Shown here in pieces: positions 1 to 7,538 of a stretch of 7,538 nt of DNA. The notes under the pieces were generated by a model that did not search any database, was not told the DNA's origin, and saw only the letters and a program-made list of their open reading frames with translations. Source of the DNA: a virus (taxonomy: Duplodnaviria; Heunggongvirae; Uroviricota; Caudoviricetes); the IMG/VR virus record IMGVR_UViG_2529292734_000008, positions 1 to 7,538 of that record. One strand, given 5' to 3'. Both the position numbers and the translations under genes were made by a program. Every line of letters begins with the position of its first letter. Position 1 is the stretch's first letter.

Positions 1-523
1 TTACCCGTTCTGTGCGGATCACTTTCAGGGCGCTGCTCACCAGTTCCAGTTGTTCTGCGCTGACTTCCCCCAGATAATCCAGCTCACCGCCACACTCCGG
101 GCAACAGCTTTCTTCAGGCTCCAGGCGGTATATCTCACGGGGGAGATGTGCCGGTAACGGACGACGATGGCGCGACTGTCGCAACTGGCGGGGAACCAGT
201 GGGTCATCCTCACGCCCACTGTAACGATCGCTTTCCTGCTCGCGTTGTTTCAGCAGGGCTTCAGCCTGTTCAACCTCACGACGCAGTTTTTCAGAACGGG
301 TTCCGAACAGCATCCGGCGCAGTTTTCTATCTGAGCCCGCAGATGCTCTATTTCTCGCTCATCTTCTTCGATCTTTTCTTCGGCACGTGCCAGTTGCAGA
401 GCGCAGGAAGGCCTCCGTCTCTTCAACCAGACTCAGTTGCTGGTCTTCCTGACGGAGGGCTTCAGCCTGCTCAGAGAGCAGCCTTTCCAGCTCAGCGATG
501 CGAATGAGGTATTTCTGACTCAT
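1..523 (-). CDS. tnpC: IS66-family transposase TnpC, N-terminal part (3' end outside window); reading frame appears interrupted
   Basis: ATG at 523-521 gives MSQKYLIRIAELERLLSEQAEALRQEDQQLSLVEETEAFLRSA. A coiled-coil segment LARAEEKIEEDEREIEHLRAQIE then lies in the +1 frame, and the long segment KLRRMLFGTRSEKLRREVEQAEALLKQ...CCPECGGELDYLGEVSAEQLELVSSALKVIRTERV returns to the ATG frame. Read straight from the ATG, the frame hits TGA (plus 359-361) after 54 codons. Confidence 0.75.
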
Positions 524-553
524 GGCCGTTTTTATAATCCGGCCCGGCGTTTT

Positions 554-904
554 TTACAACATTGTCAGTGCGTTAAGGCGGGATGTTTTTGGCTGACGCC
601 AGTCCAGCTTATCGAGGAGCATTGCCAGTTGCGAGCGGGTAATGGATATCTTACCGTCACGCACCGCAGGCCAGATAAACTGACCTTCCTCAAGGCGTTT
701 GGTGAACAGGCACAGACCATCAGCATCAGCCCACAGGATTTTAATCGTGTCTCCCCGTCGGCCACGGAAGATAAACAGGTGACCGGAGAAGGGGTTATCA
801 TCCAGCACATGCTGTATCTGCTCCCCCAGACCGTTGAAGGATTTACGCATATCAGTAACGCCGGCAACGAGCCAGATACGGGTACCTGATGGGAGTGAAA
901 TCAT
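554..904 (-). CDS. tnpB: IS66-family accessory protein TnpB (orf2)
   Basis: 116-aa ORF MISLPSGTRIWLVAGVTDMRKSFNGLGEQIQ...GHLFIFRGRRGDTIKILWADADGLCLFTKRLE, which matches the characteristic IS66 Orf2 sequence as I recall it. It sits between tnpA and tnpC. Confidence 0.85.
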   Translation of the reverse strand: MISLPSGTRIWLVAGVTDMRKSFNGLGEQIQHVLDDNPFSGHLFIFRGRRGDTIKILWADADGLCLFTKRLEEGQFIWPAVRDGKISITRSQLAMLLDKLDWRQPKTSRLNALTML

Positions 905-1338
905 CGTCCCTCCCGGTCAGCTCACGGATCAACACCGTGAGCAGCTCTGGTGAAGGATTTTCCAGCATCATTTTACCGTAATGGAATTCCACATGGCAGG
1001 AAGCTGCACAAGCAACTGATAATGCCTCCGGAGCAGGAGCATCTGTAGCACAGCGCGGGGGGTCGATAAGTTCCACTGGAACCAGAGTCGGAGAGGCCGG
1101 AAAAGATTGTGATACTGTAGGGCCTACAATAGTTGGAGGCATTCTACGAGAAAATACGTCCTTCTCTTTGCCAGAGGCGTAGCCATTTAAAAATCAGGTT
1201 GTTATCAACGCCATGTTCCCGGGCCAGTTGTGCAACATTGGCATTTGGTTTCGAAGCCAGTTCAACCATATGAAGTTTAAATTCATTAGAAAATATCCGG
1301 CGGGTTCCGGAGCGCCAGTCTGTAGGTTTATCCATCAA
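852..1338 (-). CDS. tnpA: IS66-family TnpA (orf1), present as two ORFs in different frames (1338-1144 and 1142-852); possibly frameshifted
   Basis: First ORF MMDKPTDWRSGTRRIFSNEFKLHMVELASKPNANVAQLAREHGVDNNLIFKWLRLWQREGRIFS (HTH-like) stops at TAG 1146-1144. Second ORF starts at ATG 1142 in another frame (MPPTIVGPTV...LLTVLIRELTGRDDDF...). The junction lies at the T4 run on the coding (minus) strand (A-run 1151-1154 on plus). Whether the native gene is continuous is from memory and unverified. Confidence 0.55.
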
Positions 1339-1449
1339 TAGAACTCCGTCTAATTTAGAAGGAGCTCTAATTTAGTCTGCAAGGAGCAGGTGTTACAGAC
1401 GGCATTGGCTTTACGCTTACGATTATTCATACTTCGTTTCTCCTCTTGA

Positions 1450-5388: not shown

Positions 5389-5455
5389 AACTAAGTTTTA
5401 TTAGATGCTAATTACAAATCTATCTTTGGTCAATAAAAACTAAGATTACTTAGTA
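5389..5455. promoter_or_regulatory. Divergent immunity control region (OR-like): two 14-bp inverted-repeat operator candidates and a PR-like promoter for cro
   Basis: CTAAGTTTTATTAG (5391-5404) and CTAAGATTACTTAG (5440-5453; perfect 5-bp arms CTAAG/CTTAG). On the minus strand, -35 TTGACC (5433-5428), a 17-bp spacer and -10 TAGCAT (5410-5405) precede the cro ATG. The first operator overlaps the -10/+1 region. Confidence 0.55.
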
Positions 5456-6115: not shown

Positions 6116-6183
6116 AACTAAGGCACCGAACTAAGAAAAGTTTGGTGTTTTCTCTTGCCATAATAACTAAGTTAAGTTAGATT
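6116..6183 (+). promoter_or_regulatory. OL/PL-like element: repeated AACTAAG half-sites, a 14-bp operator-like site and a sigma70-like promoter pointing rightward
   Basis: AACTAAG at 6116-6122, 6129-6135 and 6165-6171. CTAAGTTAAGTTAG at 6167-6180 matches the OR motif. -35 TTGCCA (6155-6160), 17-bp spacer, -10 TAGATT (6178-6183). Confidence 0.45.
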
Positions 6184-6261
6184 TTATGTCAAAGATAACG
6201 AACAGGCAGGACGCCCACGAAGTAGCCGCCTGGGGCATATGAAGTCCAGGATGATTCGTTA

Positions 6262-6290
6262 GCAACAAAAAAGCGCCCTACAGGACGCTT
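6262..6290 (-). terminator. Intrinsic terminator-like hairpin with U-tract, minus-strand sense
   Basis: Minus-strand RNA would read AAGCGUCC-UGUA-GGGCGCUU followed by UUUUUUGUUG (stem 6271-6290, A-run 6267-6272 on plus). On the plus strand the same hairpin has a C-A mismatch and no downstream U-tract. Confidence 0.5.
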
Positions 6291-6291
6291 A

Positions 6292-6303
6292 GCTCTTTAA
6301 CAA
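6292..6303 (+). promoter_or_regulatory. boxA-like antitermination element (12/12 match to the rrn-type boxA core GCTCTTTAACAA)
   Basis: GCTCTTTAACAA at 6292-6303, immediately after a hairpin and about 45 nt upstream of the ATG of the first plus-strand gene downstream of the PL-like promoter. A weak AU-rich hairpin CAAGTAACTGATAACTTG follows at 6319-6336. Confidence 0.45.
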
Positions 6304-6348
6304 TCTGGTCCCCATCAACAAGTAACTGATAACTTGAGGAGATGTGAA

Positions 6349-6555
6349 ATGCACAAAACAGAACCCAAAATCGTCGCGCCTGGCTACACAGATGAGGAAA
6401 TTTATGAGTGGATGACAAAGAAGCTGGCAGCTATAAACCAGCTTCGTGAAGTGCTGTCTTATCGACAGGAAACAATAGACTCCTTAAAAAAACTGGATCA
6501 GGAAATCACGGTTTTATCACAGGATGTTACTTTAGATATTGTGCAGACAAATTAG
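6349..6555 (+). CDS. Hypothetical small protein (68 aa), first gene of the rightward PL-like transcript; AT-rich accessory gene
   Basis: ATG at 6349 preceded by a strong SD GAGGAG (6336-6341). The track ORF begins at an earlier in-frame ATG at 6334. The translation MHKTEPKIVAPGYTDEEIYEWMTKKLAAINQLREVLSYRQETIDSLKKLDQEITVLSQDVTLDIVQTN is predicted helical and acidic. No family recognised. Confidence 0.6.
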   Translation: MHKTEPKIVAPGYTDEEIYEWMTKKLAAINQLREVLSYRQETIDSLKKLDQEITVLSQDVTLDIVQTN

Positions 6556-6961
6556 GATCCCATTCATTTTCGTCAAAATCATCAAAGTGATGAATTTGTG
6601 ATCTCCAGTCTCGATAATCTAAAAATTTCTGGGCGGTTACGCTTATTTTATCAAGTGTGAGTTCATCCTGAATTGAAAGAAGAAGTTCATCAAATTTCAT
6701 CTCATTAATCTGTTTTGGCATCCAGTGATGCTTCATCAGAATAAGGTGAACCAGAGCCTTTTTCCCATTCAACTGATTATAGGGAGTGCCGAATTTCTTC
6801 CGGTGCTCATGTAAGACAAGGTCCAAAAGAGTAAGTAATGTTGCCCTTGATTCAACTTTGCTTATTTCGACTGATGACACTACCCCACTGATTTCAATGC
6901 CCCGATACTTTCCAACATTTTCACAGTGGGATTTGTACAGCGTATAGATATTACCGGACAT
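6527..6961 (-). CDS. Hypothetical protein (144 aa), moron-like accessory gene transcribed convergently to the PL-like operon
   Basis: ORF with SD AAGGA (revcomp of plus 6962-6975) upstream of ATG 6961. The region looks AT-rich compared with the flanking phage backbone. Its 3' end overlaps the 68-aa gene by 29 bp. No family recognised. Confidence 0.7.
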   Translation of the reverse strand: MSGNIYTLYKSHCENVGKYRGIEISGVVSSVEISKVESRATLLTLLDLVLHEHRKKFGTPYNQLNGKKALVHLILMKHHWMPKQINEMKFDELLLSIQDELTLDKISVTAQKFLDYRDWRSQIHHFDDFDENEWDPNLSAQYLK

Positions 6962-6976
6962 TTCTTTTCCTTTTGC

Positions 6977-7028
6977 GTTGTTGGGGATAACCAGATTAAC
7001 CGAATCCTTGTTGTTGGGGAATAACCAG
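6977..7028. repeat. Two 18-19 bp direct repeats GTTGTTGGGGA(A)TAACCAG separated by about 15 bp, in the upstream region of the 144-aa gene
   Basis: Copy 1 at 6977-6994 and copy 2 at 7010-7028, nearly identical, located 16-67 bp upstream of the minus-strand ATG at 6961. Confidence 0.5.
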
Positions 7029-7245
7029 GTCCACCTCGCCTGATGTGGCTAAAAGCAGGCACATAACAGCTAAGTATTTTCAACCAGAGAGAATCCTTAG
7101 CGTTGTGGTGAATGCGGCTCAGCGCACGCGGGTTAAGGTTGAGGCTGACAGTCGACCTTCTGTGGATACCCACCCGCCTGGTGTGCAACCTTCGCCAGGC
7201 ACCGGGAGGCACCCGGCACCACAACTTTATGCTGTGTGTAGTCTT

Positions 7246-7292
7246 GGCGGTACCAGCTTGTACCCTTGCTTCCGGCTGGTACCGTCCTTTTT
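7246..7292 (+). terminator. Rho-independent terminator-like hairpin (10-bp perfect stem CGGTACCAGC/GCTGGTACCG, 17-nt loop, T5 tract)
   Basis: Stem 7248-7257 pairs with 7275-7284, followed by TTTTT at 7288-7292 on the plus strand. Confidence 0.6.
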
Positions 7293-7297
7293 ACAAA

Positions 7298-7379
7298 ACA
7301 GAGAAGAGCATCACCGGACGACGGGCTCATAACCCAATCCATCCGGGCGGCAGTCACCGCAGGTGTTCTTCTCTGTTTT
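7298..7379 (+). other. Long-range helix (about 15 bp including G-U pairs) enclosing about 49 nt, followed by a UUU run; structured leader element
   Basis: 7298-7312 pairs with 7362-7376 (ACAGAGAAGAGCATC / GGTGTTCTTCTCTGT). It lies about 50 nt upstream of the next gene's ATG. Confidence 0.35.
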
Positions 7380-7429
7380 GTGGAGAAACTAACCGACCTT
7401 GCAGGGTCGATATGATGAGGAGCAGCAAA

Positions 7430-7538
7430 ATGGCTAGCGAACGCAGTACTGATGTGCAGGCATTTATCGGGGAGCTGGACGGCGGCGTATTTGAAACCAA
7501 AATCGGCGCAGTTCTCAGTGAAGTCGCTTCCGGTGTGA
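7430..7538 (+). CDS. Hypothetical protein, 5' partial view (continues beyond window end)
   Basis: ATG 7430 with SD GAGGAG (7417-7422) 8 nt upstream. Translation MASERSTDVQAFIGELDGGVFETKIGAVLSEVASGV... is open to the window end. No family recognised. Confidence 0.55.
   Translation, partial: MASERSTDVQAFIGELDGGVFETKIGAVLSEVASGV

Follow-up and report, generated by a model that had tools for sequence, protein, structure and literature searches.

A hairpin and a ribosomal-type boxA lie back to back in the early-left leader of an E. coli lambdoid prophage, where they form a backbone module of about 50 nt (segment about 6265-6308). Sequence comparison led us to assign the two halves of this module to opposite strands: the hairpin is a predicted terminator for a convergent cargo gene, and boxA appears to be constrained in its own right on the PL transcript. 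We give an even chance to the reading that the module is a backbone 'insulator', placed where the PL operon meets the convergent cargo slot of an N-less lambdoid prophage.

The prophage region and its PL leader

The stretch of DNA analysed here (7,538 nucleotides; referred to as the window) comes from an SfV/SfIV/CPS-53-like lambdoid prophage of E. coli, of which it covers the immunity and early region (7.5 kb). Many E. coli chromosomes matched it with 100% identity, and the phages vB_EcoS-569R4, vB_EcoM-689R6, and Kati with 99.6-100%. On the minus strand the window carries cro, ymfL/ymfM-like genes, an O-like gene, a methylase gene, and rusA. On the plus strand, a LexA/cI-like repressor gene (5476-~6100) is followed by the leader region and then by yfdP. 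The repressor gene is frameshifted at ~5985 in the window, the copy in NZ_CP018991 being intact (627 nt). The window copy is probably a decaying prophage. It may be noted that IS66-family ORFs break up the prophage beyond rusA (window 1-1340).

The features of the leader and of the sequence downstream of it are the following.

6120..6155, plus strand: cI terminator hairpin (13-bp hairpin, U-rich tail, -15.1 kcal/mol, z = -3.5)
6155..6183, plus strand: PL-like sigma-70 promoter TTGCCA-17-TAGATT, from a promoter scan; candidate operators overlap it
6197..6260, plus strand: 64-nt structured leader RNA, with closing helix P1, short P2, hairpin P3, invariant loops, and an AUGA junction
6261..6290, minus strand: predicted intrinsic terminator that would end minus-strand cargo transcripts; its stem is 6290..6271 and its U-tract is the complement of 6272..6261
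6292..6303, plus strand: rrn-type boxA (GCUCUUUAACAA) on the PL transcript, an exact consensus match 1-2 nt past the hairpin
6349..6555, plus strand: 68-aa ORF (PHROG 1744), the first PL gene in the ECs1072 sub-lineage, 45 nt past boxA
6420..6445, minus strand: first terminator-like hairpin 3' of the cargo gene, with a weak U-tract
6527..6961, minus strand: convergent cargo gene of the ECs1072 family, 144 aa (PHROG 5286); the slot has unrelated genes in relatives
7072..7295, plus strand: STnc100/PasD-like sRNA region (Rfam RF02076, 43.4 bits against a gathering score of 47, E = 5e-7)
7288..7384, plus strand: unusually long hairpin (~25 bp) just before yfdP, directly after the 7246-7292 terminator
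7430..7538, plus strand: start of yfdP, which opens the conserved yfdP-yfdQ-yfdR...xis-int early-left block

In SfV, a terminator is annotated at the position equivalent to the 6120..6155 hairpin, and relatives have a promoter at the equivalent place downstream of cI. The hexamer ACTAAG occurs six times in the window, against 2.3 expected by chance over its whole length, and all six are clustered, being confined to 6117-6171 and to the cro/cI intergenic region (5390-5454). These hexamers are candidate OR and OL operator half-sites. Since the PL-like site lies just past the cI terminator and amid ACTAAG repeats, a repressor-controlled PL is a reasonable reading of the promoter at 6155-6183. boxA is in the sense orientation 3' of this predicted promoter with its operator-like repeats. 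Transcription of the plus strand is supported also by the structured RNA just 5' of boxA, whose G.U pairs fit that strand only.

Past the 68-aa ORF, the PL transcript of the window would be untranslated from 6556 to 7429, a stretch that includes the antisense of the cargo gene and the STnc100/PasD-like region. The latter ends in a strong intrinsic terminator at 7246-7292 (13-bp stem followed by U5). A 155-nt segment holding this terminator together with the ~25-bp hairpin gave a folding energy of -74.2 kcal/mol (z = -8). When the C/G composition of the antisense stretch was examined for possible rut sites, only modest G-poor windows were seen (6550-6590 and 6830-6910).

The hairpin as a predicted minus-strand terminator

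The hairpin is made of AAGCGCCC (6271-6278), the loop TACA, and GGACGCTT (6283-6290), and AAAAAA stands in front of it at 6267-6272. A terminator scan called it on the minus strand only (8 bp, 5 G-C pairs, tail TTTTGTTGCT). As minus-strand RNA, it forms a perfect 8-bp stem with one G.U pair, a 4-nt loop, and U6, at -12.1 kcal/mol. As plus-strand RNA, it has an A.C mismatch at the position of the G.U pair, reaches only -7.5 kcal/mol, and is followed by no U-tract. Two natural stem substitutions likewise give G.U pairs on the minus strand and mismatches on the plus strand.

Conservation was assessed for 24 distinct modules lying 3' of the 64-nt leader RNA, which had been picked by the hairpin alone. 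Among these, the hairpin loop (3-4 nt) occurred in more than 12 variants and the linker between hairpin and boxA in four (TA, TC, TT, and T). The A-run of the hairpin was kept in all modules. In many unrelated contigs the hairpin also occurs without boxA, immediately past the stop codon of a minus-strand gene, and the weak Rfam matches at the hairpin were all to terminator portions on the minus strand. In the window, it sits 3' of a minus-strand gene, that of the ECs1072 family (6961..6527); in relatives, minus-strand stop codons lie 9-225 nt from the module. From the strand-asymmetric pairing, the kept A-run, and the presence of the same hairpin after minus-strand stops elsewhere, we conclude that the hairpin is, as predicted from its sequence, a minus-strand intrinsic terminator for the convergent gene. 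The sequence-only reading had already assigned it this role.

Sequence and conservation of boxA

The 12-mer GCTCTTTAACAA at 6292-6303 (plus strand) was the sole match in the window, even when up to two mismatches were allowed, and an exact match appeared in 0 of 200 dinucleotide-preserving shuffles. The exact rrn-type boxA on the PL transcript, on which the sequence-only reading was built, was thereby confirmed. The base after the 12-mer is also as in rrn, so that the identity extends to 13 nt (GCTCTTTAACAAT). The site fits the consensus GYTCTTTAANA / UGCUCUUUAACAA, the first form of which was derived experimentally (PMC5725501). The locus is not among the E. coli entries of the Baniulyte supplementary list (PMC5725501), and Rfam gave no match at E <= 10 for the boxA region or for the 64-nt element.

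A consensus boxA was present 1-2 nt 3' of the hairpin in all 24 distinct modules. Eleven of its 12 positions were 100% conserved and position 10 was 83% conserved; position 10 is the N of the consensus, and the species-level genomes add G there. Beyond the TCTGG that adjoins boxA, identity among the 24 modules falls to 33-57%. As loop, linker, and flank have diverged while 11 of the 12 boxA positions are fixed, we conclude from these alignments that boxA is constrained in its own right on the plus strand. In a constrained fold boxA lay outside any stable local helix, a weak pairing with 6191-6195 being possible. The sequence-only reading had made conservation of the 12-mer in related phages a touchstone, and the answer was divided: the 12-mer is invariant wherever the module is present, but the module with its 12-mer is missing from SfV, SfII, and mEp460, which are without convergent cargo.

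In most module copies (L005, L469, L503, L536), conservation continues beyond boxA as TCTGGATATCC, which includes the palindrome GGATATCC. The equivalent segment of the window (6304-6314) has diverged and reads TCTGGTCCCCA. Exact boxA sequences were also seen ~10-70 nt from strong consensus promoters in the viral contigs L063 (~1783), L101 (~6339, minus strand), and L052/L085; these have no adjoining hairpin, and the downstream gene is co-oriented. Judging from such sites, phage leaders may make wider use of stand-alone boxA; a part of these sites could instead be bacterial rrn-like leaders.

A lambda-type nut site was considered and rejected. Like the nut sites of lambda, P22, and 21, the boxA of the window lies just 3' of PL in a lambdoid early operon, and P22 and phage 21 have a consensus-type boxA too. 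What sets the window apart from them is the lack of an N gene, of a boxB following boxA on its 3' side, and of a nutR copy in the PR operon. No conserved hairpin was found 3' of boxA, where relatives diverge after TCTGG(AT), and no other boxA with two mismatches or fewer exists in the window that could represent nutR. Two relatives of 14-24 kb (L002 and L556) have a single GYTCTTTAANA each. In the complete relatives SfV, the E. coli prophage, and phage 569R4, the Q antiterminator is annotated and N is not, and no N-like arginine-rich ORF was found among the window ORFs. With no N annotated in complete relatives, no second boxA, and no boxB, the earlier statement that no N-like protein is evident was borne out.

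Distribution of the module and the convergent cargo genes

A BLAST comparison with phages showed that the PL leader is modular, 6197-6260 forming one block and the hairpin with boxA a separate one. Of 5426 complete E. coli genomes, 1077 (~20%) carried the module, as did the phages SfIV, PhiR29/R49, and Klebsiella Kp4882-1. Species-representative genomes added Enterobacter, Kosakonia, Citrobacter, Buttiauxella, Raoultella, and Cedecea, as well as Atlantibacter, Mangrovibacter, Edwardsiella, Sodalis, and Symbiopectobacterium. For several of the collection scans the figures are among the matches listed, and some of the scans used boxA or the hairpin as their anchor.

Gene orientation was compared for distinct leaders in which the 64-nt RNA is present and the sequence continues downstream for 1.5 kb or more, the ORFs being called mechanically throughout these cargo counts. 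The longest nearby ORF was on the minus strand in 21 of 21 contexts with the module, compared with 23 of 67 without it. Most of the latter 23 look spurious or distant, and one leader counted as lacking the module (L311) proved to have it with a 1-nt linker. The same convergent arrangement was found in 23-24 of the 25 species-level genomes with the module, the cargo stop codon lying 12-225 nt from boxA. The minus-strand cargo belonged to four unrelated families (PHROG 5286, 6315, 1244, and 7681), for which Pfam and PADLOC gave no function. Four unrelated families at one slot imply that the module is a feature of the backbone and not of any cargo gene. In relatives whose leader is followed by a co-oriented first gene (SfV orf33; a 122-aa ORF in mEp460), the module was missing. 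In the sequences compared, the module was thus found only where the PL transcript is predicted to read antisense through a convergent cargo gene.

In the sequence L060, cI is followed by a terminator, PL, boxA, and a convergent 163-aa gene, while the hairpin and the 64-nt RNA are both missing. A few convergent genes without the module (e.g., that of L331) count against the link with cargo. Moreover, all the modules are homologous, and their associations with cargo are not independent events; the association may be due partly to shared descent of 'leader + slot' rather than to repeated selection. The stems of the module never covary, which indicates that it is young or has spread horizontally. 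Modules also follow other types of leader that have no 64-nt RNA. By their distribution, the module and the 64-nt RNA are independent elements that often co-occur.

In the window, the 68-aa ORF and the 144-aa ECs1072-family gene are convergent, with their 3' ends overlapping by 29 nt, and a seemingly similar arrangement of the 68-aa/144-aa type occurs in a distant relative (L099). The 68-aa ORF (6349..6555) has no arginine-rich motif. The direct repeats CTGGTTATTCCCCAACAAC and CTGGTTATCCCCAACAAC lie at 6975-7026 (minus strand), directly 5' of the ribosome-binding site of the cargo gene, and may, by their position, be the binding site of a regulator. No consensus promoter was found for the ECs1072-family cargo gene.

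The 64-nt leader RNA

The segment 6197-6260, which the sequence-only reading had overlooked, is the most conserved part of the PL leader. Helices P1 (6197-6202/6255-6260) and P3 (6229-6233/6246-6250) showed extensive covariation over 84 distinct sequences: 95.1% of cells were paired, and double (compensatory) changes were found in 10 of 14 pairs. The covariation score was reached by 0 of 500 shuffles, and when the 3' partners were shifted by 1-3 columns as a control, at most 53% of cells could pair. In the 3-bp P2, the changes from G-C to G-U fit the plus strand only. The loops AGGACGCCCACGAAGUA and GGCRUAYGAA and the junction AUGA were nearly invariant, 14 nt of the first loop having been set by the search pattern; a covariance model later found variants there. 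The fold of minimum free energy for the single leader sequence, with a CAGGC/GCCUG helix, was discarded, as covariation gave it no support.

The covariance model matched the window once, with 90.8 bits, and the RNA is present in one copy per early region. It starts 7-25 nt past the predicted PL start in the window, SfV, SPN3UB, ZF40, mEp237, and mEp460. It occurs in 1864 of 5426 complete E. coli genomes (~34%), where it is unannotated, and 6197-6260 is conserved in phages of Escherichia, Shigella, Salmonella, Klebsiella, Citrobacter, Pantoea, Yersinia, and Pectobacterium. The RNA matched no Rfam family, a literature search with its core GGACGCCCACGAAG gave no match, and a viral scan anchored on its loop L3 returned nearly all noise. 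A second conserved leader motif, AACGTTCCGCYRGCCNGGCG..AAGGCA, was seen in L006 (2560-2620), L466 (3555-3612), and L004 (2960-2995). It lies 20-40 nt past the 64-nt RNA in leaders of the SPN3UB, mEp237, and Klebsiella types, and sometimes directly before the hairpin and boxA module.

The put RNAs of HK022 and HK639 resemble the 64-nt RNA in being structured, ~65 nt long, and placed directly after PL in N-less lambdoid phages. The short strings CGAAC and CAGGAUGA are shared at similar spacing, and the CCAGG held in common with put is a covarying stem in the 64-nt RNA. The architectures differ: the 64-nt RNA has a closing helix around two hairpins, whereas put is a two-stem V shape by cryo-EM (PMC9378689). 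The covariance model (R1) gave no match at E <= 10 with HK022 putL, rebuilt from the genome with its numbering checked against PMC9378689, or with the annotated putL-like RNA of HK639. The identification of the 64-nt RNA as an HK022-type put was hence rejected. As it belongs to N-less phages and is positioned 5' of intrinsic terminators, a put-like role as a protein-independent antiterminator is nevertheless an attractive suggestion by analogy. Such a role may explain how these phages do without N.

Proposed function of the module

The pairing of boxA with a terminator probably lets each transcript end or continue correctly at the meeting point of the two. In a lysogen, the cargo gene would be transcribed toward PL and cI, and the hairpin with its U-tract would stop the cargo transcripts before they enter PL/OL and the repressor gene in antisense. 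After induction, transcription from PL would have to cross 0.5-1 kb of untranslated RNA that is antisense to the cargo. boxA, emerging in the nascent PL transcript ~100 nt past the start, would bind host NusB/NusE and nucleate an rrn-type Nus complex (NusA, NusG, and SuhB) on RNA polymerase. Such a complex would render PL transcription resistant to Rho over the antisense stretch, with no N involved. The strong intrinsic terminators downstream would be read through by something else, for which the 64-nt leader RNA is the candidate.

Untranslated antisense RNA is of the class that is normally terminated by Rho/NusG. BoxA/Nus complexes without N act mainly against Rho and are poor at suppressing intrinsic terminators. 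In rrn operons and upstream of CRISPR arrays, NusB/E bound to boxA, together with other Nus factors, yields a Rho-resistant polymerase (PMC7665894; PMC12360218), and long untranslated CRISPR transcripts are protected from Rho by boxA (Stringer et al. 2020, PMC7665894). Given the Rho/NusG target class that would be crossed and the Rho resistance conferred by boxA in rrn and CRISPR, we propose boxA as an N-independent anti-Rho signal. Its binding of NusB/E and its anti-Rho role we infer by analogy with those systems. It counts in favour of the insulator reading that L060 has boxA before a convergent gene without the hairpin. Against it count the conservation of TCTGGATATCC past boxA, the relatives without boxA in which 400-600 nt of RNA ahead of yfdP are nonetheless untranslated, and the finding that boxA can also, depending on context, promote Rho termination or repress translation (PMC5725501).

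The sequence-only reading would have taken unchanged read-through of the downstream terminators as evidence against boxA function. Both elements (7246-7292 and 7288-7384) are strong intrinsic hairpins, so that this test is not diagnostic; as boxA/Nus complexes without N act mainly on Rho, unchanged read-through at intrinsic sites would not refute a function of boxA.

Alternative explanations

It is rather unlikely, though worth weighing, that the 12-mer has no present function and is the relic of an ancestral nut site, or a recombination joint, hitch-hiking with the terminator. The module is indeed one homologous block with invariant stems, conservation runs on into the segment past boxA, the module marks the boundary of cargo gene exchange, and many relatives do without the 12-mer. 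Such hitch-hiking is difficult to reconcile with 11 invariant boxA positions beside a loop, a flank, and a linker that have diverged (the linker in both sequence and length). Further, the sole variable position of boxA is the any-base position of the functional consensus, L060 keeps boxA without the hairpin, and no remnant of boxB or N exists. Unlikely as well is a reading in which boxA serves the first PL gene as translational repressor or attenuator, on the model of suhB or of lambda N autoregulation. In that case, NusB/E bound to boxA would loop the RNA to the polymerase, block the loading of ribosomes on the 68-aa ORF, and invite Rho. The boxA of the suhB 5' UTR (Baniulyte et al. 2017, PMC5725501) is, like that of the window, a non-rRNA boxA of the form GYTCTTTAANA within 50 nt of a start codon. 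Repression at suhB tolerates a distance of up to 100 nt from boxA to the Shine-Dalgarno sequence, and boxA repression is known also at a Citrobacter toxin gene (PMC5725501). The spacing in the window would suit, boxA ending at 6303 and the ORF starting at 6349 (not at 6350, as had been given earlier). The outcome at suhB is translational repression with more Rho termination. Most relatives with the module, however, have no plus-strand ORF following it, the 68-aa ORF being specific to the ECs1072 sub-lineage; in L005, L051, L096, and L118 a minus-strand stop codon comes 9-25 nt past boxA, as it does in many of the species-level genomes. Repression of the suhB type is therefore possible in the ECs1072 sub-lineage, and is not general.

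The sequence-only reading had taken the order of hairpin and boxA for that of rrn leaders (boxB, then boxA), with antitermination through 7246-7292 and 7288-7384. The order itself, the missing N, and the strong terminators that do sit between PL and yfdP-int would suit a boxB-boxA antiterminator, which we nevertheless consider improbable. The hairpin belongs to the other strand: on the plus strand it is weak and has an A.C mismatch, natural substitutions keep pairing on the minus strand only, the loop is free to vary, and the same hairpin serves as a terminator elsewhere, so its identification as an rrn boxB was rejected. L060, in addition, has boxA without any hairpin. Nus complexes lacking N are known to act mainly on Rho-dependent terminators, and even in rrn, boxB adds little to antitermination (PMC12360218). 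Finally, the 12-mer might act in minus-strand RNA, where it reads UUGUUAAAGAGC and lies within the cargo mRNA 3' UTR just upstream of the terminator, as a candidate sRNA, Hfq, or RNase site or as a terminator-enhancing element. This we hold to be very improbable: in many relatives the 12-mer does have the cargo stop codon on one side and the terminator hairpin on the other, but no known motif fits, and the exact 13-nt identity with rrn boxA and the consensus-like variation point to the plus strand.

Relation to known systems and significance

The feature is best classed with boxA-mediated Nus regulation, in a form tied to a convergent terminator at the cargo slot of a prophage. It shares the identical 12-nt (13-nt) boxA with the ribosomal antitermination complex (NusB, NusE, NusA, NusG, SuhB, and S4). 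In both rrn and the module, boxA is promoter-proximal in a long transcript, no phage protein would be needed, and a Rho-resistant complex would be expected. Unlike rrn, the module is located in a prophage early-left leader, has no evident boxC, and carries a hairpin that is not a boxB but a predicted terminator of the opposite strand. The closest functional analogy is the boxA upstream of CRISPR arrays (PMC7665894), which also stands alone ahead of a long untranslated RNA; in the prophage, by contrast, the untranslated stretch is antisense to convergent cargo, and boxA is fused to the terminator of the cargo gene. Phage 'morons' are similar in that a cargo gene, directly followed by an intrinsic terminator, is set into an operon. 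The module differs from these in that one terminator serves four unrelated cargo families and is coupled to a signal of the opposing transcript.

It is possible, though we hold this only tentatively, that in N-less Enterobacterales prophages early-left elongation is handled by two RNA signals, a put-like 64-nt RNA and a hijacked rrn boxA, with no phage protein. boxA would then be kept where the operon reads antisense through cargo, fused back to back to the terminator of that cargo. The 64-nt RNA is a candidate for the unexplained N-independent early antitermination of SfV-, ST64B-, Gifsy-, and mEp237-like phages. If the proposed role of boxA is true, it would be a case of a phage directly using the rRNA antitermination machinery of its host without N. 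It would also explain by what means a temperate phage can keep defence or fitness cargo in reverse orientation within an essential operon despite Rho.
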